Part shown: positions 352-63,000 of the stretch, in pieces
Numbering within the stretch: position 1 is the first letter of the stretch
Layout: each line of letters starts with the position of its first letter
Assembly (NCBI GenBank): GCA_041749335.1
Contig: JBGTBM010000010.1
Span: 4,533-68,532, forward strand
Length of the DNA: 64,000 bases
Reading direction: 5' to 3'
DNA from: Patescibacteria group bacterium
Lineage (GTDB): Bacteria; Patescibacteriota; JABMPQ01
The notes under the pieces: model-generated
The model's database searches: none
What the model saw: the letters and a program-made list of their open reading frames with translations, nothing else
What the model was told of the DNA's origin: nothing
Position numbers and translations under genes: made by a program

Positions 352-2385
352 ATGCATAAAACTATGTCAAAAGAGTATAAAATAGTAAATATCGCTCCGC
401 TAACCAAAATCCCGCTTGATTGCAATCAGGTATTTTCTTATAAAATAGATCAAAGCATTTCAACCTACTCTGGACAGATAGCCCTTATCCCCTTTTCCGG
501 AAGAAAAATACAAGGAGTGATTCTTAATGATCAATATTTAAAATCTAAACCTGCACAGATTAATTCCAAAAAATTAAAAGAAATCATAAAAATTGAAGGT
601 AAGGACTTGGATATAACTACCCGGCAGCTTGAATTGGCTTTCTGGATGACTGAACAAAATATTAGTCCATTGGGACTGTGTTTAAAACAAATGGCGGTTA
701 AAAAAGTAAAGATCAGCCAAAATAATGTTTTAAAAATCAAGGCCATAAAGAAATTTTCCAAAGCACCTGTTTTAAATGATGAGCAGAAAAAAGCGGCCAA
801 AAAAATAGATAGTGCGATCGAAAATATCGGCAAGAAAAGAAATAAATCAGAGCGGATATTTTTATTGCATGGTATCACCGGATCGGGAAAGACTGAGGTT
901 TATATGCATGCGATTCGGCGCGTTATGGCCTTAGGTAAACAAACCATTATGCTGGTGCCGGAGATAACCCTGACGCCTCAAGCGATCAATCGTTTTACGC
1001 AAAGATTCGGATCGAATTGCGTAGCGGTGCTGCATAGCCGGTTAAGCTCAGGAGAGAAATATCAGTATTGGCAAAATATCAGAAAGAACCAAGCAAAAAT
1101 TATTATTGGTCCGCGCTCGGCCATATTTGCGCCGGCGGAAAATCTCGGGCTAATAATTTTAGACGAAGAGCATGATCAAAGCTATAAACAGTATGATCAA
1201 AATCCCCGCTATCACTCTCGTGATGTGGCCTTAAAACTGTCAGAAATAGCTAAAATTCCTGTTATTTTGGGAAGCGCCACTCCCAGCATTGAAAGCTATT
1301 ATTATGCCTGTAAAAAACAATATACCTTATTGGTTTTGAGAAACAGATTTAAATACGGCTTGAATCTACCGCCGGTGAAAATAATAGACATGCGGGAGGA
1401 GTTTAAAAAACGAAATTTTAGCCTTTTTAGTGAAGATTTGGTTAAAGAATTAAATAAAACCTTTAATAACAATAAACAAGCGTTAATCTTCGTAAATAGA
1501 AGAGGTGTATCTACTTTTGTGATGTGCCGTGACTGCGGCTATGTTATTGAATGCCCCAATTGCAGTGTCTCCCTCACCTATCACACGGGTTATAATCGGC
1601 ACATTATGATCTGCCATCATTGCGGATATCAAGAAAATGTCAAAGCGGCCTGCCCCAAATGCGACAGCAAGTATATAAAATATTTTGGCACTGGCACCCA
1701 GCGCGTGGAGCAGGAATTAATCAAGATTTTACCGCGGTCAAAAATATTAAGGATGGACAGCGATACAATGAACAAAAAAGGTGATCACTATAAAGCGTTC
1801 CAAGACTTTTCTCAAAAAAGATATGATATTCTCATCGGGACCCAGATGATTACCAAAGGAATAGACTTGTCAAATATAGAATTAGTCGGTATAATAGCAA
1901 CTGACGCATTATTTAACTTTCCTGACTTTAGAACCAATGAAAGAGCATTCCAGGCGATTACTCAAGTATCAGGCCGTACTTCTCGATCCCAAAATACTGG
2001 CAGTGTAATATTGCAAACTTATAATCCGGAAAATTTTGTAATAAAATATGCCGCTAATCATGATTATGAAAAATTTTATCAGTCAGAGATAAACTTAAGA
2101 AAAGAACTAAGGTATCCCCCTTTTAAAAAATTAATCAAAATAATCATTGAAGGTTCGGATTACAATAAATTAGGACAAGTTTCTTCAAAGATTGCCGAAA
2201 ATATTCGGAAAAATATCAAAAATATTGAAATGATCGGACCCTCTCCTGCTTTTATTGTGAAAAAGCGCAATAAATACATTTGGAACATAATTGTGAAATA
2301 CCAAGATAAGCAAACGACTAAGGACTTAATAAAATTTATACCCCAAGATTGTAAAATAGACATCAATCCGGAAGATTTACTTTAG
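352..2385 (+). CDS. priA: primosomal protein N' (replication restart helicase PriA)
   Basis: Walker A GITGSGKTEVY, DEEH box ILDEEHD, Cys4-Cys4 zinc cluster CRDCGYVIECPNCSVSLTYH...CHHCGYQ...CPKCDS, C-terminal helicase motifs. Confidence 0.9.
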   Translation: MHKTMSKEYKIVNIAPLTKIPLDCNQVFSYKIDQSISTYSGQIALIPFSGRKIQGVILNDQYLKSKPAQINSKKLKEIIKIEGKDLDITTRQLELAFWMTEQNISPLGLCLKQMAVKKVKISQNNVLKIKAIKKFSKAPVLNDEQKKAAKKIDSAIENIGKKRNKSERIFLLHGITGSGKTEVYMHAIRRVMALGKQTIMLVPEITLTPQAINRFTQRFGSNCVAVLHSRLSSGEKYQYWQNIRKNQAKIIIGPRSAIFAPAENLGLIILDEEHDQSYKQYDQNPRYHSRDVALKLSEIAKIPVILGSATPSIESYYYACKKQYTLLVLRNRFKYGLNLPPVKIIDMREEFKKRNFSLFSEDLVKELNKTFNNNKQALIFVNRRGVSTFVMCRDCGYVIECPNCSVSLTYHTGYNRHIMICHHCGYQENVKAACPKCDSKYIKYFGTGTQRVEQELIKILPRSKILRMDSDTMNKKGDHYKAFQDFSQKRYDILIGTQMITKGIDLSNIELVGIIATDALFNFPDFRTNERAFQAITQVSGRTSRSQNTGSVILQTYNPENFVIKYAANHDYEKFYQSEINLRKELRYPPFKKLIKIIIEGSDYNKLGQVSSKIAENIRKNIKNIEMIGPSPAFIVKKRNKYIWNIIVKYQDKQTTKDLIKFIPQDCKIDINPEDLL

Positions 2386-2396
2386 ATATTAAAGAG

Positions 2397-2837
2397 ATGA
2401 AAATAATTACTGAAGAAAATCCAATTTTACGCAAAAAATCTCAAGCAGTTGAAGATGTTTTTGATAAAAAAATAAAAAAATTAATTGATGAAATGCTTTT
2501 GGCTATGAAAAAAAATAAGGGTATTGGACTGGCAGCTCCCCAGCTGGGAATTTTAAAAAGAATTATTGCGATTGAAATGAAAGACGGTCCCTTGGTTCTG
2601 ATTAATCCCAGTATAAGCGAATATTCTCAAGAAATGGAAAAGGCGGAAGAGGGCTGTCTTTCACTCCCCGGAAAATATAAGCAGGTGGAAAGATCTAAAT
2701 CAGTTAAATATTCAGGAATATTGCCTAGCGGAGAAAAGGTTGAAGATGAGGCCAAGGGATTGTTCGCGCGAGTTATCCAGCACGAAATAGATCATTTGGA
2801 CGGAATCTTATTTATTGATCGAGTTAAAAATAAATGA
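2397..2837 (+). CDS. def: peptide deformylase
   Basis: Motifs GIGLAAPQLG, EGCLSLPG, HEIDHLDG. Confidence 0.9.
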   Translation: MKIITEENPILRKKSQAVEDVFDKKIKKLIDEMLLAMKKNKGIGLAAPQLGILKRIIAIEMKDGPLVLINPSISEYSQEMEKAEEGCLSLPGKYKQVERSKSVKYSGILPSGEKVEDEAKGLFARVIQHEIDHLDGILFIDRVKNK

Positions 2838-3796
2838 AAATAAAGAGAAGGTATAGATTATTATTTATGGGAACTCCGGAATTTGCGGTTCCGGCGTTAT
2901 TAAAGATCATCCAATCGGAAAACTTTGAAATTGTGGGAGTAGTGACGCAAATTGATAAAAAATCCGGTCGTGGATATCGGGAGATGCACTCCCCGATTAA
3001 GGAAATTGCGCTAAAATATAAAATCAAGTTCTATCAGCCCGCTAATTTAAAGGATAATAGCTTTATTGATGCGATTAAAAAAATTAATTTAGATATTATA
3101 TTGGTAGTTGCCTATGGTAAGATTATTCCAACGAGTATTCTGGAATTGCCTAAGTATGGCTGCATTAATATCCATCCCTCTCTGCTTCCCAAATATCGCG
3201 GACCGGCGCCTATGCAGGGAGCGTTACTGAATGGAGATGAAATGACCGGTACCACTATTATACTGATGAACGACAAGATGGATGAAGGAGATATTTTATT
3301 TCAGCAAAAAGTAAAAATTAAAGAAAACTGCAACATTGCCGATTTACATGATATTTTAGCTATTATCTCCGCAGATAAAATTGAACAGGTCTTATTGGAT
3401 TGGATTAGTAAAAAAATTAAGCCCCGCAAACAAAATCTGCAAGAAGCTACTTACACCAAGATCATAAAAAGAAGCGATGGATTGATCAACTGGGATAATC
3501 ATTCTTCCGATATTATCAATAAATATCGGGCTTATCATCCATGGCCGGGAGCCTATACATATCTACGGCAGAAAAATAAGAAAATAATGCTGAAGCTGAT
3601 ATCCATTGAAACCGGAGAAAGCTCTCAAGGACATAAAGCGGGAGAAATCTATGAAGCAGATGGAAAATTGTTGGTTGCTACAAATGATAAAAATAGTATA
3701 ATTTTAAGAAGAGTTCAGCTGGAGGGGAAAAAACCGATCTCGGGGAAAGAATTTATTTCCGGCTATAATAAATATTTAGGCAACAGATTAAAATAA
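2834..3796 (+). CDS. fmt: methionyl-tRNA formyltransferase
   Basis: LLFMGTPEFAVP N-terminus, HPSLLPKYRGPAP active-site motif. 4-bp overlap with def (classic def-fmt operon). Confidence 0.9.
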   Translation: MKIKRRYRLLFMGTPEFAVPALLKIIQSENFEIVGVVTQIDKKSGRGYREMHSPIKEIALKYKIKFYQPANLKDNSFIDAIKKINLDIILVVAYGKIIPTSILELPKYGCINIHPSLLPKYRGPAPMQGALLNGDEMTGTTIILMNDKMDEGDILFQQKVKIKENCNIADLHDILAIISADKIEQVLLDWISKKIKPRKQNLQEATYTKIIKRSDGLINWDNHSSDIINKYRAYHPWPGAYTYLRQKNKKIMLKLISIETGESSQGHKAGEIYEADGKLLVATNDKNSIILRRVQLEGKKPISGKEFISGYNKYLGNRLK

Positions 3797-3801
3797 AAAC
3801 T

Positions 3802-4617
3802 ATGGATCAAAATCGGTCAGCCAAAGATTCAATGGCGTTAATATTTCTTTCAGTAATAGCATTATTGGGAGTAGGTTTTTTTACGATCAGATTATGGTTT
3901 CCTGATTTACTCAACTCCAAGGAAGAAAAAATTAATACAATTGTTGATGAAGAGATAGATGATGATGAAGATATTCCCAAAATATCCGTGGATGAACTGA
4001 AAACAAAATTTGATAATAACGAAAGTTTTATTTTAATAGACGTACAAAACACTGAAGATTATATTCAGGCTACTATCCCCACCGCTATCTCTGTACCTTT
4101 GACGGAAATTGATCAGAGATACGAAGAATTGCCTAAAAACAAACAAATAATCGCGACAGACGCGGGCGGCAGTTGCCAGGAATGCTCTCGGGCGGTTGAA
4201 ATTTTGCGGGATTATGGTTTTGCGGATATCAAAAAATTAAACGGCGGAGTTATTGCTTGGTCCAACGCTGGTTATCCGGTAATAAATGGAAGCGAAATAA
4301 CTTTTAAAAATATTAATAGCGATATTCTACTGGATTTTGTAGATGCCGGCGAGGAGGTCGTAATAATTGATGTTCGCGACAAAGAAAAATATGATGCCGG
4401 CCATATTGTTGGCGCTATCTACATGCCGTTCGAAGGATTGGCGCAAAATATTGATACTATGCCAAAAAATAAGAAAATTATTATTTATGACGAATCGGGC
4501 AATAGAAGCAAAATAGCCATTAAACAGTTTATTTATAAAGGTTATATGGAGGTTGCTAATTTGTTAAGGGGCTATAATGATTGGCAAGCCAATAATTATC
4601 CCACAGAAAAGAACTAA
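3802..4617 (+). CDS. membrane-anchored tandem rhodanese-homology-domain protein (catalytic Cys apparently absent)
   Basis: N-terminal TM helix. Two rhodanese-like domains (…LIDVQNTEDY…, …IIDVRDKEKYDAGHIVGA…). Active-site loop reads YDESGNRS rather than CxxGxR. Confidence 0.55.
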   Translation: MDQNRSAKDSMALIFLSVIALLGVGFFTIRLWFPDLLNSKEEKINTIVDEEIDDDEDIPKISVDELKTKFDNNESFILIDVQNTEDYIQATIPTAISVPLTEIDQRYEELPKNKQIIATDAGGSCQECSRAVEILRDYGFADIKKLNGGVIAWSNAGYPVINGSEITFKNINSDILLDFVDAGEEVVIIDVRDKEKYDAGHIVGAIYMPFEGLAQNIDTMPKNKKIIIYDESGNRSKIAIKQFIYKGYMEVANLLRGYNDWQANNYPTEKN

Positions 4618-22035: not shown

Positions 22036-22596
22036 CTAATCCTTAAGTATTACATCAATATTTTTATGAAGATCACTTATCTCCCCGGTATTGATAATTG
22101 TATAATCTGCCATAGCGATTGGTGCGCCCGTAGCTAAATTTTCCAATTGTGCATAGTCGCGCTTCTTAACGCTATCTTCGTTAAATTTACGCTCCTTGCC
22201 TTGTTTAATCTCTGTTCTTCCCATCACTCTTCCATATCTAATTTTTGGAGGCGCAAATACGGCAATAACCTTAAAACTATCTCCATACTTCTCTTTTATC
22301 AGTTTATATTCCTCCCAGCTATATAAGCTTTCAATAACCACATTCCCCTTTGCAAATCCCTTTTCAATTTTAGGCATGCTGATTATAGCGAAAGCTGCCA
22401 TTCCATATTTTTTCCGTAAATTTTCCCTTACTCTTTTTTCATTCTCTTCATTGGTTTCCAATCCCTGCCTTTTTATTTCATCAAAAGTAGCATCGCCAAA
22501 ATATACCTTAAAATATCCTTTGTTTTCGATATGGCGTGTTGCCTCTGTTTTACCGGCGAAAGGCATTCCAACAACGGCGATAATTTTTTTATTCAT
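22036..22596 (-). CDS. P-loop nucleoside/nucleotide kinase (dephospho-CoA-kinase-like / UPF0200-like)
   Basis: Walker A VGMPFAGKT; small alpha/beta kinase size. Adjacent to dCMP deaminase. Confidence 0.4.
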   Translation of the reverse strand: MNKKIIAVVGMPFAGKTEATRHIENKGYFKVYFGDATFDEIKRQGLETNEENEKRVRENLRKKYGMAAFAIISMPKIEKGFAKGNVVIESLYSWEEYKLIKEKYGDSFKVIAVFAPPKIRYGRVMGRTEIKQGKERKFNEDSVKKRDYAQLENLATGAPIAMADYTIINTGEISDLHKNIDVILKD

Positions 22597-22599
22597 ATA

Positions 22600-23139
22600 T
22601 TATTCATTAGATAGCTTAACGCTTCCCTCTGTGGCAATCCTCTCTTCGATTTCCTCTTCGAATAATGATTTTACCATATTGTTCCATACCTTATTGTTTT
22701 TGTATAATTCAACCTTAATTCCAGCCTCTTTTAAATATTCGAGTGCTTTTTCTCCCCGATATATTTTTCCGATTACGACTCTCTTTATTCCGCACGCAAT
22801 AACATATTTCGCGCAATGAATGCAGGGATTATAAAGAGTATATAGGGTAGAACCTTGAGTGCTCATTGATCCCAATATTGCAGCTTGAAGCAATGCATTA
22901 TGTTCGGCATGGATTGTTCTAACACAATGCCCATCTTCTAATAAATGCCCCGCTTCACTATCACAATGCGGCAATCCGGGAGGAGAACCATTATATCCGG
23001 TTGAAATAGTTCTATTGTCTTTTACTAAAACGGCGCCTGCTCTTAGTCGATCGCAAGTTGATCGAGTGGCAATTATTCTCGCAATGGCCATAAAATAATC
23101 ATCCCAGTTGGGACGAAAATATTTTTCGCTTTTGCTCAT
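22600..23139 (-). CDS. comEB: deoxycytidylate (dCMP) deaminase
   Basis: Zinc ligand motifs HAEHNAL and PCIHCA. Confidence 0.85.
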   Translation of the reverse strand: MSKSEKYFRPNWDDYFMAIARIIATRSTCDRLRAGAVLVKDNRTISTGYNGSPPGLPHCDSEAGHLLEDGHCVRTIHAEHNALLQAAILGSMSTQGSTLYTLYNPCIHCAKYVIACGIKRVVIGKIYRGEKALEYLKEAGIKVELYKNNKVWNNMVKSLFEEEIEERIATEGSVKLSNE

Positions 23140-23662
23140 AATATTTTGTTTTAATTAATTTTGATATTGCAACGTAAGTAAATGATACTACCGGAATGAT
23201 AATTAGATTTCCCAATAAATTCATTTTTAAAAATGGCAGTGCCATCACATAACATTGAATTAATCCTGACCAAGTATGTGGATACATATTCCACATTGCC
23301 CAGACGCCGAAATTTGTCCAGATAAAAAAGATTAGCGATGCGCCTATTCCCAACCACGTCATTTTAAAACTAAACCGAAAATTTTTGGTGCTCCTTTTTA
23401 GCAATAACCCCAATAATCCGATTATCGCCCATGCCGACCAGGTAAAAATCATAATTGGATCATTGCCGATTAATGCATCTGAAATAGCTACTGATGACAG
23501 CGGTATTGCAATTGCGTAAAAACCTCCTAATAATGAACCGCCCAATAGCGCTGCGATTGTCAATGTTTCTATATTTGGAATATCAATCAATAACATTCTG
23601 CCAATTACTGCGAATGCTACCAATGAAGATCCGGCTATAAATTTATAAATTTTGTTTTTCAT
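23099..23662 (-). CDS. integral membrane protein, possible ECF-type substrate (S) component (CbrT-like, given B12 context)
   Basis: 5-6 TM helices and ~185 aa fit ECF S-component architecture. Sits downstream of DUF4430 genes and the candidate cobalamin riboswitch. Function is context-based. Confidence 0.3.
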   Translation of the reverse strand: MKNKIYKFIAGSSLVAFAVIGRMLLIDIPNIETLTIAALLGGSLLGGFYAIAIPLSSVAISDALIGNDPIMIFTWSAWAIIGLLGLLLKRSTKNFRFSFKMTWLGIGASLIFFIWTNFGVWAMWNMYPHTWSGLIQCYVMALPFLKMNLLGNLIIIPVVSFTYVAISKLIKTKYYEQKRKIFSSQLG

Positions 23663-23749
23663 AAAGATAATAATTTAACACACAATATAATATACCAAAT
23701 AACTAAGACTTTCATCAAGTTAAAATAAAATGGCTTAATTATTTTTCTA

Positions 23750-24217
23750 CTAAAAGGTGCTTTCTTCAAATTTAAATTCTATCCTGTCACTGCTTTTAAC
23801 TTCTTGTTTATCTGCTGACTGTATTGCCATTTCTCCATTAATATAATATAGCCAATATTTATTATCAGTTCCGGCTAAGTCGTCTCCAATGCCATCAATG
23901 GATTTTCCAAAATCATAATCTTTAGTCACCAGTCCTAATCTATTAATATCAGATGATTTTTTTAAAACATCATATGCTGTATCTCCCAGATTAATTTGAA
24001 TGGAATCCTCATACTTTTTTTCACTTCCTTTAATAACTAAAACAACCTCTTCTACTAAATTTAATTTCAAATCATCCACATTTTCAATAATATTTCCTGA
24101 TAGATCGGCTTGTTCAGTATTTTTATTTACTTCGGACTCGCTATTAGTGGTACAGGCGGTTATTGTCAGAGTAAAAGCAAAAAGTACGGCCAACATAGAT
24201 AATTTATTCTTATTCAT
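23750..24217 (-). CDS. DUF4430 (transcobalamin-like) lipoprotein
   Basis: Signal peptide plus lipobox (LTITAC). C-terminal …KYWLYYINGEMAIQSADKQEVKSSDRIEFKF matches DUF4430. Confidence 0.5.
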   Translation of the reverse strand: MNKNKLSMLAVLFAFTLTITACTTNSESEVNKNTEQADLSGNIIENVDDLKLNLVEEVVLVIKGSEKKYEDSIQINLGDTAYDVLKKSSDINRLGLVTKDYDFGKSIDGIGDDLAGTDNKYWLYYINGEMAIQSADKQEVKSSDRIEFKFEESTF

Positions 24218-24301
24218 TTTTTATAATTAATTTAATAAATATCGCATAAGCGAAAATAATTTTTTTTAAAGAAAGGCAAAATGCCTTAATTTTTAGTTGG
24301 A

Positions 24302-24673
24302 TTATCGGAGAAAAATGCCTTTCCAAACAATACGGTCGCCGGCGATTACTTGAAAATCTGATACATTTGCATAAATACGATTACCATTAACTTCGAACAC
24401 CCAATCACCCCACATGTTTTTAATCGAGTATACATAATTTGCTTTTTCTTCGCGGCCATTCAAATCAAATTTATTCCAATCATATTGGACTCCGGATAAT
24501 TCATTTAATGTAGCATTTAGGACTGTTCCGAATTGGCTTACACAGAAGCCAATTTCAACATCATAATGTTCCGTAGCGCATCCCGACGTCTTAAATAAAA
24601 GCGAAAATGGCAGTAAAAGAGCTGATATTCCAGATACTTTTAATAAAGCTCTTCGCTCTTGATCCAACTTCAT
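24302..24673 (-). CDS. DUF4430 lipoprotein; start corrected to ATG preceded by AAGGAGGTG RBS (track start at 24703 is TTG inside the riboswitch expression platform)
   Basis: …WGDWVFEVNGNRIYANVSDFQVIAGDRIVW DUF4430 motif. Lipobox FKTSGC. RBS caaggaggtgtttgATG. Confidence 0.5.
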   Translation of the reverse strand: MKLDQERRALLKVSGISALLLPFSLLFKTSGCATEHYDVEIGFCVSQFGTVLNATLNELSGVQYDWNKFDLNGREEKANYVYSIKNMWGDWVFEVNGNRIYANVSDFQVIAGDRIVWKGIFLR

Positions 24674-24698
24674 CAAACACCTCCTTGTTATTAAAAAG

Positions 24699-24905
24699 AA
24701 CAAAAAACCTTCCCTGAGGAAGGCATATTTAAATTAAATAATATCAAATTTATTTTCCCTGCTCGAGGTTATTTAACATGAGATCAGTGCTCTGACTTAT
24801 TCCAAATGGAAATTACAGTAGCGGCACTGTGGAGGATTCTTCCGCTTGGCGGAACCACCTCGCTTCCCTGATCGTCCCAATATTCATTGGGTCATGGTTT
24901 ATTTT
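24699..24905 (-). promoter_or_regulatory. candidate cobalamin (AdoCbl) riboswitch with intrinsic-terminator expression platform
   Basis: Minus-strand RNA has AGGGAA, GGTGgttCC, CCACAGTGCC and an AGTCAG..CACTG B12-box-like element. Hairpin ccttcctcagggaagg plus a T6 run lies immediately 5' of the RBS of the DUF4430 gene. Confidence 0.55.
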
Positions 24906-24966
24906 TCAAATATCATGTATAAAATATAACAACATAAAATATCTCTGTCAAATTTTTATCCCCAGC

Positions 24967-25500
24967 TTAATATTCAATTCCTTCTCTGGCGTCAATTCCC
25001 TGATCATAATAATGCTTAATTTTTTTCATATCAGTTACAATATCAGCTGCATCAATAACTTTTTTTCTGGCATTGCGGCCGGTTAAAATAATTTCTACGC
25101 CTTGATTCCGATAATTTTCAATAAACTCTAATAAAGTTTGTTCTTTGATTAAATTAAAATCTACCGCAACATTTATTTCATCTAAAATTAAAATATCGCA
25201 GTTTTTTTCTTGCATGGTTTTTTTTGCAAAATTGAAACCCTTTTTAGCTTTTTCAATGTCACTCTTTTTTAATTTTTTATTAATAATAAAGTCTTTGTTG
25301 CCAAATTGATATAGATTAAAATTTGACTTAAGCTTTTTTTGAATCATAAATTCACCCACATTTTCCCTGCCTTTCATAAATTGAATCATACATATTTTAT
25401 ATCCATGGCCAATTGCACGCATGGCTATACCGAGTGCAGAAGTTGTTTTGCCATGGCCATCTCCCGTGTTGACATGTATTTTGCCAAAATGTCTTTTCAT
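24967..25500 (-). CDS. cobO: cob(I)yrinic acid a,c-diamide / cob(I)alamin adenosyltransferase (CobO/BtuR type)
   Basis: N-terminal P-loop HVNTGDGHGKTTSALG; typical ~175 aa length. Confidence 0.8.
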   Translation of the reverse strand: MKRHFGKIHVNTGDGHGKTTSALGIAMRAIGHGYKICMIQFMKGRENVGEFMIQKKLKSNFNLYQFGNKDFIINKKLKKSDIEKAKKGFNFAKKTMQEKNCDILILDEINVAVDFNLIKEQTLLEFIENYRNQGVEIILTGRNARKKVIDAADIVTDMKKIKHYYDQGIDAREGIEY

Positions 25501-33434: not shown

Positions 33435-35909
33435 TTATTTGATGCTTTCTCCAACCGGATTTAAATCGGCCTGGCTTGATCCCAATTGAGATCTTTCCAT
33501 AATATCTATTTCAACAGTTTTTCGATCCTTGCCGTACTTTAAGCGCGATAATTGTTTAACAGCGTTGGCGATTTCCTGGCTGCCGCCTTCATAAGGAGGA
33601 TAAGTAGCCATTGTAAACGGAGCTGATTTCTGTGAATTTGCCATTAATCTTAAATATGCGTGAAATCTTTCAATATTAATTACATCCGTTTCAGAAAATA
33701 CCGGATCAAATTCTTTAGCTATTATTTCTGCATCTTCAACGCCAATGCGGAATGTGACGAATGATCCCACATTCCCAAAAACGGCATCGCGTATTTCTTC
33801 TTCTAATTGTGAAACATATTGGTGAGCAACTATTAGGTTCAATCGATATTTTCTAGCTTCCGCCAAAATAGACGCAAAACTATCGGTCGCAAAATTTTGA
33901 AACTCGTCTACATATAAATAAAAATCTTTTCTTTGCTCTTCGGGCATATCAGCTCTAGCCATGGCTGCCATTTGAATTTTAGAAACAATTATTAATCCTA
34001 ATAAGGAACTGTTAACTTCTCCAACTTTACCCTTAGATAAATTTACCAATAAAACCTTTTCATTATCCATTACGTCCCGCATATCAAAAGCTGACCGGCT
34101 TTGTCCCATAATATTGCGCATCATTTCATTTTCAACAAACCGACCGACTTTTGATATTAAATATCCCAGCATTTCCGACTTATGAAAATCAGAAGTTTTC
34201 GCCATTTCATTTTCCCAGAATGATCTTACGACCGGATCCTTTAATTTGTCTACCCAGCTTTTTTGATATTCTTGGTCAGTAAACATTCGCGGGATTTCTA
34301 TGATTGTTCCCGGATTTTCTTTGTCAGCCATCAAAGTCAGCATAACATTGCGCATATTATGTTCGAACATCGGTCCAATCATTTCCGGTGGAAATAATTT
34401 ATAGAATATATTGATCATTTCCTGTACCGCAAAGTCTTTTTGATCTTCAGATTTGAATTCCAGCATATTTAAACCCATTGGCCTTTCCATATCAAATGGT
34501 TCAAAAAGAATAACATCTTCAGCTCTTTCTTTTGGAATATGCGGTAAAACGCCGTCAATTAAATCTCCATGCGGATCTACGACGCAAACACCTTTGCCGG
34601 CCTGAATATCCTGAATAATCATATTTTGTAAAAATACGGACTTACCGGTACCAGTCTGTCCAATAATATACATATGCCTTCTTCTATCGTTATCTTGAAT
34701 ATTAATTTTTGTTTCTATTCCGCGATAATTATTCTTTCCCAAAAGCAAACCCTCCTTGGGCATGTTGGGTGGAGGCGGCGCATCTTTAGATAATAACCAT
34801 TTTATGTTTGGAGTTTCAGTAAATTTAGTCGGCAGATGGGAAATACTAGCCAGTTCTTCAGTATTTAAAATTGTTTTATTAGTAATACCAATTTTAATAC
34901 TAACAAAATTTCTAAATATAAAATCATGAATAAAATTTCTTTTTCTATGCGGTAACCGAACTATAATTTTATTCAAGTTGGGATCGGTATATTGAGTAAA
35001 GGTATCTTTAATGTTATTAAAATAACTATCGGCTAATTCTTGGGTTTGAGCGGATGCAATTACTCTAATACATACTTCATATCCTAATTTTGATGACTTT
35101 TCCTCAATTTTTTTCATTACTTCTTCTTCTACCGGTGTTAGCATAGCTTGTTGTTGTTGAGATTGCCCTTTTTGCTCTTTTGATACTCCAATATTTCCAA
35201 TAATTTGAGATGGTTGATTCGAAATTATTGATGTTGCAGACTTAAGAGATTTACCGCTTCTCATTTTTTTTGCAATTTGTTTTCCCCTTCTGGACCATTT
35301 AACTGCGGGTCTAAATAATATTTGAATTACAGCTCCTTCATCCTCTTTCAACTTACTTAGCGCATTAGTCAATGAATTCAATGGATCCGCTTCCAAATTT
35401 TGATATGTTTTTATCGGCAAATAATACGATTTTGCCAATGTCATATAACCGCCCTTTACTTTATACCCCGGCTTAAAAATATTATAATCTCCCGATTCTT
35501 CAATAACTGATTTGGGATACTGAGATTGAATAGTCTTTTCTACGTACTCACGATATTTTCTAGGCGTAATTACATAAAACCTTATTTCTCCGTTTACAGC
35601 TGCTATTTCAATGCCCAAATAATCACTGCCAAATATTGATGAAAATAAACCTTTTTTCTTAATAGCATGCAAATTGGCATAAACCTGCTCAGCAATTGAT
35701 ATTATTTCTTTTTCCTCTTTTTTAGCTTCTTCAGTGATCGGCTTTATTTCCTTAGGCACTGTCACCAACAAAGCAACCATATTAAGAGATCGGGGCAATA
35801 AATTTCGATTTTTTAACCATCTTAGCGTTAATATTACCGCAACAAAAAAAACTAGCGCCATAACTGCAATAAAAATATATAACTGAGTATTTGTATAATA
35901 TATAATCAT
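33435..35909 (-). CDS. type IV secretion/conjugation-type ATPase (TraG/VirD4/TraD or VirB4-like coupling ATPase) with N-terminal TM
   Basis: N-terminal TM helix. Walker A IIGQTGTGKS, Walker B YLYVDEFQNF, …VAHQY… motif. Confidence 0.6.
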   Translation of the reverse strand: MIIYYTNTQLYIFIAVMALVFFVAVILTLRWLKNRNLLPRSLNMVALLVTVPKEIKPITEEAKKEEKEIISIAEQVYANLHAIKKKGLFSSIFGSDYLGIEIAAVNGEIRFYVITPRKYREYVEKTIQSQYPKSVIEESGDYNIFKPGYKVKGGYMTLAKSYYLPIKTYQNLEADPLNSLTNALSKLKEDEGAVIQILFRPAVKWSRRGKQIAKKMRSGKSLKSATSIISNQPSQIIGNIGVSKEQKGQSQQQQAMLTPVEEEVMKKIEEKSSKLGYEVCIRVIASAQTQELADSYFNNIKDTFTQYTDPNLNKIIVRLPHRKRNFIHDFIFRNFVSIKIGITNKTILNTEELASISHLPTKFTETPNIKWLLSKDAPPPPNMPKEGLLLGKNNYRGIETKINIQDNDRRRHMYIIGQTGTGKSVFLQNMIIQDIQAGKGVCVVDPHGDLIDGVLPHIPKERAEDVILFEPFDMERPMGLNMLEFKSEDQKDFAVQEMINIFYKLFPPEMIGPMFEHNMRNVMLTLMADKENPGTIIEIPRMFTDQEYQKSWVDKLKDPVVRSFWENEMAKTSDFHKSEMLGYLISKVGRFVENEMMRNIMGQSRSAFDMRDVMDNEKVLLVNLSKGKVGEVNSSLLGLIIVSKIQMAAMARADMPEEQRKDFYLYVDEFQNFATDSFASILAEARKYRLNLIVAHQYVSQLEEEIRDAVFGNVGSFVTFRIGVEDAEIIAKEFDPVFSETDVINIERFHAYLRLMANSQKSAPFTMATYPPYEGGSQEIANAVKQLSRLKYGKDRKTVEIDIMERSQLGSSQADLNPVGESIK

Positions 35910-59133: not shown

Positions 59134-59904
59134 CTATACATTTTCCGGATTTTCCCGATCTAGGGCCCATTTCAACGGATTATATCTAATATAATAACGG
59201 ATTTCATCCAATGATTTCTCATTACGGATAATATGATCGTAAAATGATCGCTGCCAGGAGAAATTATTTAATCCCCGATTGCGAATTAATTTGGATGATG
59301 TTGTCTTAAACGCGCCAATCAATTCCGACAAAGATTTTATTTTCCCTGCCGGAACGGGTTGCGTTATGGGAACGTTAATGCTCGTTGTATGGACAGGTCG
59401 CGCGGTGCTGGTATTAATTTTTCCTTCAGAGACAATTTGCGTAACATTGCAATCAATATTCCTTGCCGAAACGGGCCGCTCTATGGAGACGTTAATGTTC
59501 GTTGTAGGGACAGGTCGCGTGGTGTTGGTATTAATATTTCCCGCAGGGATAATTTGCGTAATATTATAATCAATATTCCTTGCCGGAACGGGTCGCTCTA
59601 TGGAGACGTTAATGTTCGTTGTAGGGACAGGTCGCGACCTGTCCCTACGTTGAATTACCAAAATCCCATGGAAATGGTTTGGCATAACAATATATTCATC
59701 TAATCGGGCATATTGGTATTTTTTTGCCAGCCACAACCATTGATTTTCCACAATCTCCCCGTATTTATTCAAAATTATCCGATCATTAATAATCGAACCA
59801 AAATTATTTTTTCTATCTGCGGTGCATGGCGTAATATAATACAGGCCGTTTTTTGAATAATCGTAATTCAATAAACGATTATTTCTCCTCCTTGGTTTAA
59901 GCAT
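59134..59904 (-). mobile_element. tnpA: IS200/IS605-family (COG1943/RAYT-like Y1 HuH) transposase gene carrying an in-frame tandem-repeat insertion
   Basis: N-terminal …YIVMPNHFHGILVI (HuH). C-terminal SLSELIGAFKTTSSKLIR…FSWQRSFYDHIIRNEKSLDEIRYYIRYNP (catalytic Tyr helix). Between them are 2.5 copies of a 39-aa repeat. Confidence 0.6.
59347..59647. repeat. 2.5 x 117-bp direct tandem repeat ending in 26-bp perfect palindrome tagggacaggtcgcgacctgtcccta
   Basis: Units at 59347-59463, 59464-59580 and 59581-59637. Palindrome at 59622-59647. Confidence 0.85.
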
Positions 59905-59950: not shown

Positions 59951-60934
59951 TTATGGATTATTGGCGATCGCGCTTACCATCCATTCCCCGTTGGTATTTT
60001 TTTCCAAGGTGATCCAGCGATAATTAATTCCGTTTTGCCAGCCCATCTGTTCGCCTTCCGGCTTGACCTTAACCTCCAGCTCAAATTTGAATACTTGGCG
60101 ATCAGCGGTCCATTCTTCCTTATAAACTTCTTCCGTCTTTTTGACTTCCAGCTTTTCAAGAGTGTTAAAATTAACGCCCCAAGCTTGTTTTTCATTTTCT
60201 GAAACATCCATCATCGCCAAAGCGTTCGGGATATTTAAGGCGGCTAAATTGCTAATAAATTTATCGGCGATGTCCTGCTGGCTAGCGCCTAAATCTTTGG
60301 AATCTTCTTCCGGCAAATCAATCGGATTATTTTTTATTTCAAAAGATAAATTTCCCTGGATTTTTTCCGCGACCTTAGCGGCGAAATCAATCAGCTCATC
60401 ATCCTCCAAGCCTTTTCCGGCAAGATTGGTTTCAATCCTTACATACCGATTGGGATTGATAATCAAACGAATATCCCGCAATGTTTTGTCCTCGCGATAA
60501 GCTATCATGTTTTCCATTTTGATGCGCGGGTCGCTTCCATATGAGGCGTCCAATATTTCCAACCCCTTTTTCTGGTTTTCAACGTTTAAATTTTCCACCA
60601 TCATAAAAATCAACTGCCCACCGCCTCTTAACTTAGGATCGGTGTATTGCGCATTGTAATTCGGGTCATAAGTAAAATAATAACGGCAGGCCTGCAGCGG
60701 CACGATCCAATCAGGCTCCACTTTTACCACTTCCTTGCCGGTCGCGGAATACACAAAATCCGCGGTGATCGCCTTGCAGATATCCGTATCAATATCGCCT
60801 TTTATATCCTGAAGCTCATCTTGTTTGGCTTCATTTCCTTGGTTCGTCTCTCCCGCCGGACTGTCTTTTTTAGTACAGCCGATAAAGCTTAAACTCAAAA
60901 GAACGAGCAAGGCAATAAACCCGATTTTTTTCAT
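59951..60934 (-). CDS. lipoprotein, hypothetical
   Basis: Signal peptide plus lipobox FIGCTK. Confidence 0.4.
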   Translation of the reverse strand: MKKIGFIALLVLLSLSFIGCTKKDSPAGETNQGNEAKQDELQDIKGDIDTDICKAITADFVYSATGKEVVKVEPDWIVPLQACRYYFTYDPNYNAQYTDPKLRGGGQLIFMMVENLNVENQKKGLEILDASYGSDPRIKMENMIAYREDKTLRDIRLIINPNRYVRIETNLAGKGLEDDELIDFAAKVAEKIQGNLSFEIKNNPIDLPEEDSKDLGASQQDIADKFISNLAALNIPNALAMMDVSENEKQAWGVNFNTLEKLEVKKTEEVYKEEWTADRQVFKFELEVKVKPEGEQMGWQNGINYRWITLEKNTNGEWMVSAIANNP

Positions 60935-60993
60935 TTATTTATATTATTTATTATTAATCTTATTTTAATTTTACTAAATTGGTAATTCAAAAT

Positions 60994-61380
60994 CTAAATA
61001 TTTACTTCCCTCACTTCCAGCACGGTCTTTTTGACATCTTTGGAGGGAGAAGCAAAATTAATCAGCAAACCCTGCATGATTTTTAGAATTTTTAAATAAT
61101 TGCGCAGCTGTTGCTCTTCTTTTTCCCCGATCTTCCCGGCCGCCTTAAGCTCCAAGACATATTTATCTTTTCCCATCTTCATCACTACATCGGGATAGCC
61201 CTCGCCCACATAATGATTCTTATAAGTCAGCTCCACCACCTTTTGGCTTTCATAAGGAATTTTGGCGAGCCGCAGTCCCACCTTCATGGCGTTTTCATAA
61301 ACGTTTTCGCTGAAACCGGAGCCGAGAGAATTATAGACGCTATGCGCAATTGTAATGATTTTGTTAAGTTTTATTGTTGG
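60994..61380 (-). CDS. GxxExxY-family protein (PD-(D/E)xK-like); track ORF truncated, reading frame continues upstream through the GFSENVY motif without an ATG
   Basis: Upstream in-frame translation …LNKIITIAHSVYNSLGSGFSENVYENA precedes the MKVGLR… start. C-terminal GLLINFASP matches the family. Non-ATG start or 5' decay. Confidence 0.5.
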   Translation of the reverse strand, partial: PTIKLNKIITIAHSVYNSLGSGFSENVYENAMKVGLRLAKIPYESQKVVELTYKNHYVGEGYPDVVMKMGKDKYVLELKAAGKIGEKEEQQLRNYLKILKIMQGLLINFASPSKDVKKTVLEVREVNI

Positions 61381-61393
61381 TATAAGTTTTTTA

Positions 61394-62227
61394 TTAATTT
61401 TTACTAAGCTTGAAATGTGGCTTTTCTGCTAATATGTACAATATTATTGCAATAATTATAATTGGCAACAAAAATATAAGATAAATATTACAAATATTAT
61501 TCCAGTTAAATATTTCAATTAATAAAATTACAATAAAAAAGGTTGGAATAAAATATAAAATATAATTTATTAGTTTTGACAAAGAAAAACCAATTATATT
61601 TTTATTAAGTTTATAAAGTTCATCATTAATAATATGAAAGTATGTTTTAAGACCTTTGCTATATCTAGATCCAATCATTTCGTAATGAATAATATAATTA
61701 TATTTATAAATTTTATCGGCAAATATTTTTTCATTTTCATCTAAACTATTTATGAAATATTGATATTGTTTTGAGGCTACCGTTTCTTTATATTCTGATT
61801 CCTTTTTCTTGCTGTTTATTTTTAAAGATAAATTAATATCACTTGCAGTTATCTGCCTTCTAAAGTTTTCTATAGATTTCATACTTTCAATTATCTGATT
61901 CATTTCAGCAATGGCGCTAAGCATATTATCCGATAGATGCACAACGCTCTGATCTAACATAATTCCTTTAATTGAGTTGTTTTGTGTATCAAAAATAATT
62001 CTAAATGGATTACTAAATTCCAATATTTTCTTATCATCTGGAGAACCTATGTAACCTTCGTTATTGGCACTAGCCCATCTACCAATTATTTTCAATTGAT
62101 ATTTAATTGAGCTTATAACTTTTATTTTTTCTAATATATGCCTTCTTTGATATTCAAAAAATATAACTAGAAAGGCAAGAACTGCAAATATTTCAGGTAT
62201 TTTATCTAACAATCTCTCAATCATCAT
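61394..62227 (-). CDS. membrane protein, hypothetical
   Basis: N-terminal and C-terminal TM helices. AT-rich. Confidence 0.3.
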   Translation of the reverse strand: MMIERLLDKIPEIFAVLAFLVIFFEYQRRHILEKIKVISSIKYQLKIIGRWASANNEGYIGSPDDKKILEFSNPFRIIFDTQNNSIKGIMLDQSVVHLSDNMLSAIAEMNQIIESMKSIENFRRQITASDINLSLKINSKKKESEYKETVASKQYQYFINSLDENEKIFADKIYKYNYIIHYEMIGSRYSKGLKTYFHIINDELYKLNKNIIGFSLSKLINYILYFIPTFFIVILLIEIFNWNNICNIYLIFLLPIIIIAIILYILAEKPHFKLSKN

Positions 62228-62990
62228 TACTATATAATTTATTTGTTAACTTTTCTTGATTTATAATTTTAAATTTATCATTATAATTTTCATCATATTT
62301 AAATCTAACCTCGTATTCATTTTTTTCGATATCCTTATAATTAATAATGATATTTTCAATCTTATCCAAACTGGACTCAATAACAAATTTTTTTGTTGCA
62401 TTGTAATATCTTAAGCTCTCTAAAATTTCACTATCGGGAACCTCGTCTATGGAAACAGTACTATTAGATTTCGAAGGTAAAGCAGGTCTTTTTTTAATAT
62501 TAAATTTAATTTCAATTTCTCCAGGAACTTCAACTATCTTTATGGTTTTAAATTCAACATCAACTGCTATTCCACGACCCTCATTAGATAAATAAAATAA
62601 TTTGTCTTTATCTTCTGCTAGTTTTAGTTTTAAATATGGTTTCAATTCATAATCTCTTTGTTTTCTAACTTCTTGTAATTCTTTTTGCTGTACTTCCTTC
62701 AAATCTTTTGTTTCTCTTGAATACCAAAATACAATAATGCCAGTTAAAAATATAAATGTAATTTGGATTTTCTCACTCGGAGATAACCAATCAACACCCT
62801 TGTGTATCTGCTCAATAAATATTATATAGATCGATCCGATCAATCCCAATAACAATAAAAATATTCTATATTCCTTCCTCCAAACAAAATCAACAAATTT
62901 AATAAATCTGCCAAGCTTGTCATTTTTATGCCTTCCCCATTTATTTTTAATATTTTTTAAATAATATTTTAAACTCTTAAAACTACACAT
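62217..62990 (-). CDS. membrane protein, hypothetical
   Basis: TM helices; 11-bp overlap with downstream gene. Confidence 0.3.
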   Translation of the reverse strand: MCSFKSLKYYLKNIKNKWGRHKNDKLGRFIKFVDFVWRKEYRIFLLLLGLIGSIYIIFIEQIHKGVDWLSPSEKIQITFIFLTGIIVFWYSRETKDLKEVQQKELQEVRKQRDYELKPYLKLKLAEDKDKLFYLSNEGRGIAVDVEFKTIKIVEVPGEIEIKFNIKKRPALPSKSNSTVSIDEVPDSEILESLRYYNATKKFVIESSLDKIENIIINYKDIEKNEYEVRFKYDENYNDKFKIINQEKLTNKLYSNDD

Positions 62991-63000
62991 TCATGTTATG

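Follow-up and report, generated by a model that had tools for sequence, protein, structure and literature searches.

The corrinoid riboswitch of Priestia megaterium metE is a transcriptional, repressing switch whose platform model has been validated by mutation (PMC10327014), and the 'atypical' riboswitch of Bacillus subtilis yvrC binds AdoCbl, MeCbl and HOCbl (PMC7367189). On the protein side, DUF4430 is the C-terminal domain of the transcobalamins (PMC4350170). In the 64,000-nucleotide stretch analysed here (the window), a cobalamin riboswitch lies before three genes whose products most likely capture B12 and bring it into the cell. The observations comprise sequence elements, family matches, covariation, synteny and the presence of NrdJ, and it is rather probable that a B12 riboswitch with a transcriptional terminator controls a corrinoid-uptake operon feeding CobO and NrdJ. 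The core of this explanation, a B12 riboswitch that acts through a terminator-type platform on a corrinoid-salvage operon beside cobO, had been proposed in a sequence-only reading and survived every test that was run; the leader elements, hairpin, ribosome-binding site (RBS), ATG and cobO listed there are all present on the minus strand where they had been placed.

All of the features described below lie on the minus strand. The upstream block tpiA-fba-cobO ends with cobO (24967-25500, 177 aa; PF02572, 206 bits), an ATP:corrinoid adenosyltransferase gene that scores slightly below the NCBIfam cutoffs of TIGR00708 (154.8 bits) and NF004637 (180.2 bits); it is outside riboswitch control, and its synteny is kept in the relatives L002, L084 and L085. 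Downstream of the leader, genes for lipoprotein 1 (24302-24673, 123 aa), lipoprotein 2 (23750-24217, 155 aa) and a DUF6580 membrane protein (23099-23662, 187 aa, six to seven helices; PF20221, 110 bits) follow one another with gaps of 84 and 87 nt, which could accommodate further signals. An unlikely alternative is that a genuine riboswitch gates lipoprotein 1 only, lipoprotein 2 and DUF6580 being expressed mainly from internal promoters, with the transporter outside B12 control. A palindromic hairpin, AAGGCAUUUUGCCUU (24287-24273), indeed lies between the two lipoprotein genes, and a promoter-like TTGATG with an 18-nt spacer and TATATT plus TG extension is found upstream of DUF6580 (23718-23689). 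However, the hairpin has no proper U-tract on the minus strand, the promoter scan gave 21 sites against 21.2 in shuffled sequence, and all five orthologs keep the three genes in the same order. Moreover, in L004, L086, L054 and L062 a riboswitch stands directly before DUF4430-DUF6580, with short gaps.

Both lipoproteins had been read as DUF4430 proteins, and for lipoprotein 2 (lipobox LTITAC) this is clear: PF14478 is matched at 54.9 bits, and the transcobalamin beta domain 5no0_A is matched weakly (E 1.2). Lipoprotein 1 is a divergent DUF4430-like protein, as its 18.5 bits lie under the 23.8-bit cutoff and hhalign aligns 28 C-terminal columns only. Its twin-arginine motif and G-C lipobox are both invariant in the ortholog alignment, and its profile retrieves small homologs at 17.9-22.2 bits and, at E 7.5e-6, a protein that contains five DUF4430 repeats. 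The third protein, which had been suggested to be a six-helix ECF S-component, belongs to DUF6580, which is not a recognised S-component family, and its match to PF12822 (ECF_trnsprt; 18.8 bits) fails the 30.7-bit cutoff. The remote relationship stood: the single PDB match of the DUF6580 family profile is CbrT (6fnp_A, E 3.5e-4), and the top Foldseek matches of the AlphaFold2 model (pLDDT 94.8) are all ECF S-components, although weak (E 0.3-1, TM 0.45-0.57). We regard the DUF6580 protein as a candidate corrinoid-translocating S-component-like subunit.

Less likely still is the alternative that DUF6580 and the lipoproteins handle another cargo (cobinamide, another corrinoid precursor or an unrelated cofactor), or that DUF6580 has a role other than transport. 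Neither experimental characterisation of DUF6580 nor literature on it was found, its likeness to CbrT is marginal, CbrT transports cobinamide too, and no ECF energising module was found among the window ORFs of at least 150 aa. In Actinomycetota, DUF6580 homologs occur without a B12 context, none of the 14 scanned loci having a riboswitch or a nearby cobO match. Against this, DUF6580 is found repeatedly beside cobO, DUF4430, NrdJ and Cbl riboswitches in Patescibacteria and other lineages, transcobalamins contact corrinoids through the domain family DUF4430, and only some corrinoid cargo explains all of the neighbours of DUF6580. Of 80 species-representative DUF6580 loci, 24 have cobO as a neighbour, 25 have DUF4430 and 42 have one or both. 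Cbl-clan riboswitches were found at 12 of the 53 scanned loci, and five other cobO-linked loci showed no riboswitch even at E <= 0.05. The B12-dependent enzyme that the sequence-only reading had proposed to look for turned up as an nrdR-nrdJ pair on a contig of 300,524 bp, which comes from the sequencing run that also yielded the window locus, the NrdJ scoring 1033 bits with NF006417 (cutoff 961) and 757 with TIGR02504 (cutoff 400). In L004, nrdJ-cobO is immediately upstream of the riboswitch operon, and in L086 it is a few genes upstream.

A sigma-70-type promoter (24951-24923) is recognized just past cobO, with TTGACA at 24951-24946, a 17-nt spacer and an extended -10 element, TGnTATATT, at 24931-24923. 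It matches 11 of the 12 consensus positions plus the TG extension, TTGAC(A/T) and TGnTAnnnT are kept in L002, L084 and L085, and transcription would start near 24916. At the other end of the leader lies an intrinsic terminator, GCCUUCC-UCAG-GGAAGGU followed by U6 (GCCTTCCTCAGGGAAGG plus T6; 24724-24702), with a folding energy of -10.8 kcal/mol. A terminator pattern alone is not significant (three found versus 2.6 expected in 4 kb), and this one is kept in all five orthologs. Between aptamer and terminator a P13 hairpin, CCU-CGAGCA-GGG (24768-24757; L13 at 24765-24760), was found, and the sequence GAGCAGGG (24764-24757), consisting of L13 and the P13 3' strand, is the proposed 5' strand of an antiterminator whose 3' strand is CCUUCCUC (24723-24716), that is, the terminator 5' arm and first loop bases. 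Both the terminator and the antiterminator that were to be looked for are predicted by folding, and the platform is richer than a bare terminator in also having a proposed P13/L13 kissing-loop hairpin. In all five orthologs the terminator is the most stable of the three structures (-6.6 to -10.8 kcal/mol), followed by the antiterminator (-5.1 to -7.4) and then P13 (-1.3 to -1.7); since the antiterminator is weaker than the terminator, switching, if any, would have to be kinetic. When the truncated platform is folded, the antiterminator is the structure of minimum energy; in the five orthologs it is 100% paired, with one-sided changes only. For P13, a comparison of 10 distinct riboswitches shows the three inner pairs 100% paired with 9 compensatory cells, a level reached by none of 500 shuffles.

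The proposed partner of L13 is the L5 loop UGCCG (24826-24822), invariant in the five orthologs. An L5 of UGCCG occurs together with an L13 of CGAGCA, 41-70 nt downstream of it, in 13 of 13 riboswitches, and UCCCG with CGGUCGA in three of three (background rates, 4e-4 and 1e-4 per nt); this co-occurrence across 16 riboswitches supports the kissing loop. An unbiased duplex search did not pick L13 as the best partner of L5, its result being no better than with shuffled L5.

The RBS, AAGGAGGTG / AAGGAGGUG (24686-24678), precedes the ATG of lipoprotein 1 at 24673. This start, favored earlier over 24703, is right, since the TTG at 24703 falls inside the terminator U-tract, and both the ATG and the GGAGG of the RBS are kept in orthologs; no correction is needed, because the public gene calls already give 123 aa. 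It is quite improbable that the riboswitch mainly governs ribosome access, in a translational or dual control. Many Cbl riboswitches are translational (e.g., btuB and env8), and CCUCC in the 3' strand of P4 is complementary to GGAGG, but the RBS is outside every conserved hairpin, a strong hairpin with a U6-U7 tract is placed 16-20 nt upstream of it in all five orthologs, and the arrangement of P13, antiterminator and terminator is that of a validated transcriptional switch.

The aptamer itself (24909-24765) matches the full RF00174 model (1-189) with 27.6 bits under permissive filters, below the gathering score of 31.5 bits, and the whole-window search gave nothing at or above that score. The search recommended earlier was nevertheless significant, the E-value being 3e-5 for 451 nt and about 4e-3 when scaled by search space to 64 kb. 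Four orthologous leaders are full-model matches without competing matches (27.6-30.6 bits; L002, 30.5; L084 and L085, 29.9 and 30.6), and every member of the window lineage scores below the gathering score. In L084 and L085 these matches are the sole ones with E <= 0.05 in a 64-kb search with 4227 families. These ortholog scores, the sole matches in L084 and L085, and the paired and covarying alignment place the match beyond chance. In the same slot (cobO, riboswitch, DUF4430, DUF6580), above-threshold Cbl riboswitches are found in L004 (46.5 bits), L041 (88.5) and L086 (94.1).

The aptamer, whose P1 is formed by CAUGA (24896-24892) and UCAUG (24781-24777), also contains AGGGAAG (24869-24863), GAGGTGGTTCC (24861-24851), the L5 context CCACAGTGCC (about 24832-24823) and a B12-box-like segment, AAGTCAGAGCACTGATC / AAGUCAGAGCACUGAUC (24798-24782), which supplies P6 and P3 with their 3' strands, aligns to the RF00174 consensus and is nearly invariant across orthologs. 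A P2 hairpin arm, CCCAAU-GAAU-AUUGGG (24891-24876), stands between P1 and P3; in L085 a C-G pair of this arm is replaced by U-A as a compensatory change, and L002 and L084 carry different stems. Loop L4 holds an extra hairpin, UUCCGC-CAA-GCGGAA (24854-24840), of which five pairs are 100% paired with one U-A to C-G compensatory change. Comparable L4 inserts occur in L004, L058 and L106. Instead of the long P7-P11 extension there is a short P6 hairpin, UUUCC-AUUU-GGAAU (24812-24799), this region having 7 nt where the RF00174 model has 62. In the five-leader alignment, compensatory changes are seen in four pairs of P6. Overall, the 47 modelled pairs are 98.2% paired, versus 42-52% with the partners slid, and compensatory changes in six pairs were matched by none of 500 shuffles. 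Within the lineage the core helices and kissing loop are invariant and thus show no covariation. RNAalifold independently finds P1, P2, P4, the L4 insert, P6, P13 and the terminator. The P1-P6 architecture, whose absence together with that of a significant RF00174 match would have refuted the earlier proposal, forms, with covariation. It is very improbable that the leader resembles a cobalamin riboswitch only by chance or decay and has no sensing function. Its score is subthreshold, and within the invariant core RNAalifold folds two local hairpins, ACAGUG/UACUGU and GUCAG/CUGAU, in preference to canonical P5/P6/P3, but the sequence of that core hardly varies although the flanking proteins share only 52-69% identity, peripheral stems carry compensatory changes, the L5/L13 signature is common to above-threshold riboswitches, and leader position and gene context are those expected for a B12 riboswitch.

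In the favored explanation, the transcript would initiate at its own promoter and open with the riboswitch. When a corrinoid is bound (ligand binding and the form sensed being predictions), L5 would kiss L13 (CG-A-GCA) and stabilise the otherwise weak P13; with P13 held, the terminator CCUUCC/GGAAGG plus U6 would fold, and transcription would end ahead of the operon. When no corrinoid is bound, P13 would be released, and its 3' strand with L13 would pair with the terminator 5' arm, so that the operon would be transcribed. The two lipoproteins, membrane-anchored and extracytoplasmic, would then capture the corrinoid, and DUF6580, as a distant relative of the B12-specific S-component CbrT, would move it across the membrane, both substrate and energy source being presumed. 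Finally, CobO would adenosylate the corrinoid that has entered the cell, for use by NrdJ, the AdoCbl-dependent class II ribonucleotide reductase, a DNA-precursor enzyme that requires B12 in this small-genome Patescibacteria bacterium. In short, the riboswitch finding is sound, yet largely expected, and the RNA is too atypical for the standard database threshold.

The gene cluster resembles nrdJ-cbrS-cbrT-pduO of Lactobacillus delbrueckii (ECF-CbrT, 6FNP; PMC5997447) in having a small six-helix membrane protein beside a corrinoid adenosyltransferase and a functional tie to AdoCbl-dependent NrdJ. However, CbrT belongs to PF12822 and has no DUF6580 match, the window adenosyltransferase is CobO-type rather than PduO-type, and the window has two lipoproteins and no EcfAA'T was seen in it. 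BtuM, a solitary S-component-like B12 transporter without a dedicated ECF module (PMC6072759), is a possible precedent for DUF6580, although a PDB search gave no sequence match between the two. As in the C-terminal (beta) domain of transcobalamin, intrinsic factor and haptocorrin, of which lipoprotein 2 is a clear member, lipoprotein 1 carries a C-terminal W-x-x-x-(V/I)NG...GD-x-I motif; in contrast to those proteins, both are single-domain lipoproteins without the alpha/alpha-toroid domain, and their corrinoid binding is putative.

As for the RNA, the P. megaterium metE platform (PMC10327014) shares with the one proposed for the window an L5-L13 kissing loop that stabilises P13, and a P13 that alone is weaker than the antiterminator. 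The window sequence differs in that L5 is UGCCG instead of the consensus UCCCG, L13 CGAGCA implies a bulged A, P13 would have only three pairs, and the antiterminator would use L13 bases too. The B. subtilis yvrC riboswitch likewise combines a P2 stem-loop arm, placed between P1 and P3, with only a small P6 hairpin, and governs a B12 uptake operon (PMC7367189), but the window RNA has the additional L4 hairpin. The Cbl-II class (RF01689, AdoCbl-II; RF01482, AdoCbl; clan CL00101) also has a short P6, and its matches in L012, L054, L062 and L044 share L5 UGCCG and L13 CGAGCA with the window, whereas the P2 arm is absent from Cbl-II and the best match of the window RNA is RF00174, not RF01689 or RF01482. 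Judged by its sequence, the aptamer is thus a canonical P3-P6 four-way junction core with a hybrid periphery, Cbl-I-like in P2 and Cbl-II-like in P6.

A new cobalamin riboswitch with a sub-threshold Rfam score, a hybrid periphery and a kissing-loop/antiterminator/terminator platform is real in our judgement, and heads a predicted corrinoid-uptake operon on the minus strand of the window. The core of the sequence-only reading, namely a B12 riboswitch with a terminator platform in front of a corrinoid-salvage operon, was essentially right, and all of the motifs quoted in it were found at their positions.

An Rfam scan of the whole window at gathering thresholds detected only one tRNA and no riboswitch. 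When 451 nt were searched with permissive filters, the full RF00174 model (positions 1-189) was matched at 24909-24765(-), with 27.6 bits and an E-value of 3e-5 (about 4e-3 when scaled to the search space of the window). The anticipated RF00174 match is thus present over the full model, but it lies below the curated gathering score of 31.5 bits. In the alignment, 7 nt stand in place of the 62-nt P6 extension of the model and 15 nt are inserted in L4, and the score is low because of these two features. Orthologous loci were found in four syntenic relatives (L002, L003, which is truncated, L084 and L085), whose proteins are 52-69% identical to those of the window. The leaders of L002, L084 and L085 match the full model with 30.5, 29.9 and 30.6 bits, respectively, and the E-values of the full-model matches, including that of the window, range from 3e-5 to 9e-4. 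In a 64-kb search with all 4227 families, the leaders of L084 and L085 were the sole matches at E ≤ 0.05.

The RF00174 alignment contains the conserved core blocks (J3/4 GGGAA, P4 GGUG...AAUCC, a GCCACUG-like strand and the B12 box), and a P3-P6 four-way junction with a conserved core is predicted. The modelled pairs of P1 and P3-P6 are 100% paired in the orthologs yet invariant, and are thus compatible with the structure rather than a proof of it by covariation. The core is near-invariant across the five leaders (the window and its four relatives), and the stems at the periphery differ between them, with compensatory changes. P1, P2, P4, a hairpin in the L4 insert, the P6 hairpin, another small hairpin after the aptamer and the terminator also emerged from RNAalifold as an independent prediction, with double changes at six pairs. 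An explicit model of the bound state (47 pairs) was 98.2% paired, against 42-52% with slid partners, and its six compensatory pairs were matched by none of 500 shuffles. Added support for the identity comes from positional orthology: in distant Patescibacteria, above-threshold Cbl riboswitches exist between cobO and DUF4430-DUF6580 (L004, 46.5 bits; L041, 88.5 bits; L086, 94.1 bits). We conclude that the predicted riboswitch is real, although it formally falls short of the curated score.

The RNA fits neither of the two main classes. A P2 arm, as in Cbl-I, is recognized at 24891-24876(-) between P1 and P3 and includes a compensatory change; the large P6 extension (P7-P11) of Cbl-I is absent, and P6 consists only of a 14-nt hairpin. 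Cbl-II is defined by a simple P6 stem-loop and the lack of a P2 arm (for both class definitions and the hybrid "atypical" architecture of yvrC, see PMC7367189), and the window RNA has the short P6 but also the P2 arm. Since both are present, the RNA is a hybrid like B. subtilis yvrC, which likewise combines the P2 arm of Cbl-I with the short P6 hairpin of Cbl-II; it differs from yvrC in an extra L4 hairpin. This L4-insert hairpin also exists in L004, L058 and L106. A pattern scan of metagenomes on the L4 insert (GGTGGTNCCGN{3,14}CGGNAGAATCC) gave 120 matches, nearly all of them chance occurrences in GC-rich coding DNA, and L106 was the sole real Cbl riboswitch among them.

An invariant element, CCUCGAGCA(A/G)GGAAA, lies 3' of P1, and after about 35 AU-rich nucleotides it is followed by GCCUUCC-UCAG-GGAAGGU plus U6 (24724-24702(-); seven-pair stem, UCAG loop, -10.8 kcal/mol). 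This GC-rich hairpin with its U-tract upstream of an ORF is a predicted intrinsic (Rho-independent) terminator, conserved in the five orthologs, and the RBS and ATG come next. Sixteen Cbl-clan (CL00101) riboswitches were compared at L5 (24826-24822(-) in the window). An L5 of UGCCG was followed 41-70 nt downstream by a hairpin with the loop CGAGCA in 13 of 13 cases, and an L5 of UCCCG, the published consensus, by a hairpin with the loop CGGUCGA in three of three; the background frequencies of these loops are 4e-4 and 1e-4 per nt, respectively. The stem around CGAGCA covaries over 10 distinct sequences (three inner pairs 100% paired; nine compensatory cells; 0/500 shuffles). From this covariation and the perfect co-occurrence, the CGAGCA hairpin (24768-24757(-)) is therefore taken as P13/L13, the kissing partner of L5. 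Five pairs are possible between UGCCG and CG(A)GCA, with one bulged A, and relative to the consensus UCCCG/CGGGA the shift from C to G in L5 is answered by one from G to C in L13. When L5 was run against each platform with RNAduplex, L13 did not stand out, and the real L5 did no better than shuffled L5. Because this duplex-energy test is uninformative, the support for the kissing loop consists of the co-occurrence and the literature model; an L5-L13 kiss is predicted, and its exact pairs are presumed.

In a fold without the 3' arm of the terminator, the MFE structure pairs GAGCAGGG (L13 and the 3' strand of P13) with CCUUCCUC (the 5' arm of the terminator). This antiterminator is 100% paired in the five orthologs, with one-sided changes only, and the alternative terminator and antiterminator folds suspected from the sequence are both predicted in all five. 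In every ortholog, the predicted stability rises from P13 alone (-1.3 to -1.7 kcal/mol) through the antiterminator (-5.1 to -7.4 kcal/mol) to the terminator (-6.6 to -10.8 kcal/mol). A long-range antiterminator, in which J3/4-P4 of the aptamer (GGGAAG and CGAGGU) would pair with ACCUCG and CUUCCU, was dropped on account of aptamer-side changes relative to the window (AGAGGU in L084 and L085, GGAAAG in L085) that are uncompensated on the partner side. [quoted passage not shown] Because of this analogy and the conservation, the element in the window is read as a putative OFF switch on termination, in which the corrinoid-bound state would allow the L5-L13 kiss, P13 would be held, and transcription would terminate.

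The leader (293 nt) lies between cobO (25500-24967(-)) and an ATG at 24673(-). By PF02572 (206 bits; cutoff 25.7), the product of cobO is predicted to be a CobA/CobO/BtuR ATP:corrinoid adenosyltransferase; on NCBIfam it is narrowly under both strict cutoffs (TIGR00708, 154.8 bits against 167.75; NF004637, 180.2 bits against 185). The ATG opens an ORF of 123 aa (lipoprotein 1), and ORFs of 155 aa (lipoprotein 2; 24217-23750(-)) and 187 aa (the DUF6580 membrane protein; 23662-23099(-)) follow, the last having a 41-nt overlap with a dCMP-deaminase gene on the same strand. A near-consensus promoter (TTGACA, 17 nt, TGnTATATT) at 24951-24923(-) lies just past the stop of cobO and is kept in three orthologous loci. 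Because of this position and conservation, the operon should have its own start, presumably near 24916, with cobO outside the control of the leader. Directly past the cobO stop and just 5' of the -35 box, a TGGGGATAAA block (24952-24966(-)), kept in L002, L084 and L085, may serve as an UP-element or operator. A start of lipoprotein 1 at 24673 instead of 24703 had been proposed as a correction; the position is right, but the correction is needless, the public gene calls already giving 123 aa. A GGAGG box precedes the ATG by 6 nt, both being conserved, and the TTG at 24703, which opens a mechanical ORF of 133 aa, falls within the U-tract of the terminator.

Two further features are found inside the operon. 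Between the two lipoprotein genes there is a perfect palindromic hairpin (AAGGCA-UUU-UGCCUU; 24273-24287, both strands), which was scored as a terminator on the plus strand, where there is no gene, and is followed by UCUUUAAAAAAAA on the minus strand; it may act as an attenuator within the operon or stabilise the mRNA. A promoter-like site (TTGATG, 18-nt spacer, TATATT, with a TG extension) at 23689-23718(-), 5' of the DUF6580 gene, could provide expression of that gene independent of the riboswitch; the promoter scan as a whole gave no more sites than shuffled sequence.

Transcobalamins carry DUF4430 as their C-terminal domain (PMC4350170). The sequence-only reading had counted two DUF4430 lipoproteins, of which lipoprotein 2 is a clear predicted member (PF14478, 54.9 bits, cutoff 23.8; nearly the full profile), but lipoprotein 1 (18.5 bits, over the C-terminal half only) is below the cutoff. 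The family of lipoprotein 1 is tiny: a search of 1.84 billion representatives gave five matches. On DUF4430, its small homologs reach 17.9 and 22.2 bits, and hhalign against the lipoprotein-2 family gave 36% probability, over a C-terminal motif of 28 columns only. The AlphaFold2 model of lipoprotein 1, built from three sequences, had a pLDDT of 33.6 and was unusable for fold comparison. The lipoprotein 1 profile also found P0248, a surface protein of 1553 aa (E = 7.5e-6). Lipoprotein 1 is DUF4430-like, a candidate member that probably works like a DUF4430 domain. P0248 itself carries five DUF4430 repeats, a prenyltransferase-like alpha/alpha-toroid domain and SLH domains, and thus has both transcobalamin domain types in one bacterial cell-surface protein. 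At the N-terminus of lipoprotein 1 (24673-24575(-)), a twin-arginine motif (S/E-R-R-x-L/F-L) and then an invariant G-C lipobox are present in all five orthologs, which suggests a lipoprotein exported via Tat, an unusual route if the protein captures a vitamin, as is supposed; no Tat-signal model of Pfam or NCBIfam matched lipoprotein 1.

The membrane protein belongs to DUF6580 (PF20221, 110.3 bits, cutoff 27), as do nearly all of its 215 homologs, and we found no papers on this family. A profile of 34 DUF6580 sequences had exactly one match in the PDB, chain A of 6FNP (residues 8-172 of 182; E = 3.5e-4). 6FNP is the vitamin B12 transporter ECF-CbrT, in which CbrT is the B12-binding S-component (PMC5997447). 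The ECF S-component proposed earlier is in line with this remote match, but the protein misses the cutoff of PF12822 (18.8 bits against 30.7), whereas CbrT scores 50.9 bits on PF12822 and has no DUF6580 match. In a Foldseek search, the six best matches of the confident AlphaFold2 model (pLDDT 94.8) were all ECF S-components, with weak statistics. The membrane component of the operon is a remote CbrT relative from an uncharacterised family, which probably works like a CbrT-type S-component and is at most a candidate member of the CbrT family. Among the window ORFs of at least 150 aa, no EcfA/EcfA'/EcfT module was found, and the only ABC pair was FtsE/FtsX.

At least 594 loci in species-representative genomes encode DUF6580. 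Of 80 species-representative loci, 24 have cobO and 25 a DUF4430 gene no more than 4 kb away, and 42 have one or both. At curated thresholds, 12 of 53 scanned loci gave a Cbl-clan riboswitch; none was found in the 14 scanned Actinomycetota loci. A scan at E ≤ 0.05 of five DUF6580 loci with a linked cobO showed no riboswitch, and riboswitch control is therefore lineage-specific. The Actinomycetota loci (L026, L029, L031, L032, L038, L040, L042, L045, L046, L049, L051, L052, L055 and L068; genera Promicromonospora, Cellulosimicrobium, Isoptericola, Luteimicrobium and Oerskovia) also have no cobO match, and a weak DUF4430-like match lies upstream in L045 and L049; the role of DUF6580 may be different there. 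L062 (DATBWR010000004.1, from a MAG labelled Nanoarchaeia archaeon) contains, at 578-4453, an RNR-like ORF of 874 aa, a TTGACA promoter-like site, an AdoCbl-II riboswitch (40.4 bits; L5 and L13 the same as in the window), an intrinsic terminator, DUF4430 and DUF6580; this is either a misbinned bacterial contig or a cobalamin riboswitch in a DPANN archaeon. In L019 (labelled Iainarchaeum), cobO-DUF4430-DUF6580 exists without a riboswitch.

Six Patescibacteria loci have a Cbl-clan riboswitch near DUF6580 upstream of a large ORF of 386-877 aa without a Pfam family (L044, 4600-6147; L058, 4768-5928; L036, 4004-5962; L048, 5253-6548; L023, 954-3440; L012, 874-3507). These ORFs are only patchily interrelated and have no homolog in the window, and a PDB sequence search with three of them gave no match; from their position, they are predicted members of a CPR B12 regulon.

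The search for a B12-dependent enzyme elsewhere in the genome, proposed in the sequence-only reading, was successful. P0162, encoded by an nrdR-nrdJ pair on a contig with the same length (300,524 bp), sources and sequencing run (SRR28170473) as that of the window locus, passes the equivalog cutoffs of NrdJ (NF006417, 1033.3 bits, cutoff 961; TIGR02504, 757 bits, cutoff 399.95), and is predicted to be the class II, AdoCbl-dependent enzyme that consumes B12 in this genome. Searches of the window ORFs of at least 150 aa gave no gene for corrinoid biosynthesis and no further enzyme that depends on B12. Directly 5' of cobO, L004 and L086 have a gene for a class II ribonucleotide reductase, and the riboswitch and DUF4430-DUF6580 lie downstream; in L086, two ORFs without a Pfam family (428 aa and 91 aa) exist at 2471-4022, between cobO and the 94-bit riboswitch. 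Straight after the uptake genes are a dCMP deaminase and an AAA_18 nucleotide-kinase-like protein in the window (22036-23139(-)), and a dCTP deaminase and a MazG protein in L085 (5637-7627); this run of uptake genes into deoxynucleotide genes fits a link to ribonucleotide reduction. Elsewhere in the window, a TrwB/VirD4-like type IV coupling-protein homolog of 824 aa (33435-35909(-)) and a weak IS200-like Y1 transposase match (59134-59904(-)), with several ORFs without a Pfam family nearby (59951-63651), may represent a mobile-element remnant.

The operon would explain the B12 supply of the sole detected B12-dependent enzyme, the AdoCbl-dependent ribonucleotide reductase, in a Patescibacteria organism with a reduced genome. 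DUF6580 gains a definite function that can be tested, that of a CbrT-like subunit for corrinoid transport, which matters because for most prokaryotes the membrane proteins that take up B12 have yet to be identified. At its curated threshold, Rfam overlooks an entire lineage of hybrid cobalamin riboswitches (27.6-30.6 against 31.5 bits), and B12 regulons are therefore under-annotated in candidate-phyla genomes. There is little here to surprise specialists; the use lies in this testable function of DUF6580/DUF4430 in candidate-phyla bacteria and in the documented blind spot of the threshold. As a tentative and rather doubtful extension, DUF6580 and the DUF4430 lipoproteins might form an uncharacterised, widespread corrinoid uptake system of small-genome bacteria (Patescibacteria), possibly also of DPANN archaea, in which extracytoplasmic proteins of the transcobalamin-beta type would pass B12 to a CbrT-like subunit that needs no ECF module of its own, the Tat pathway would export lipoprotein 1 in folded form, and the large proteins without a Pfam family behind Cbl riboswitches by DUF6580 would be further members of the B12 regulon hidden in the same lineages.

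The arrangement in the window, L004 and L086 is paralleled by the nrdJ-cbrS-cbrT-pduO cluster of L. delbrueckii (PMC5997447). In lactobacilli, a DUF4430 protein adjoins rtpR, a context akin to that of the window.
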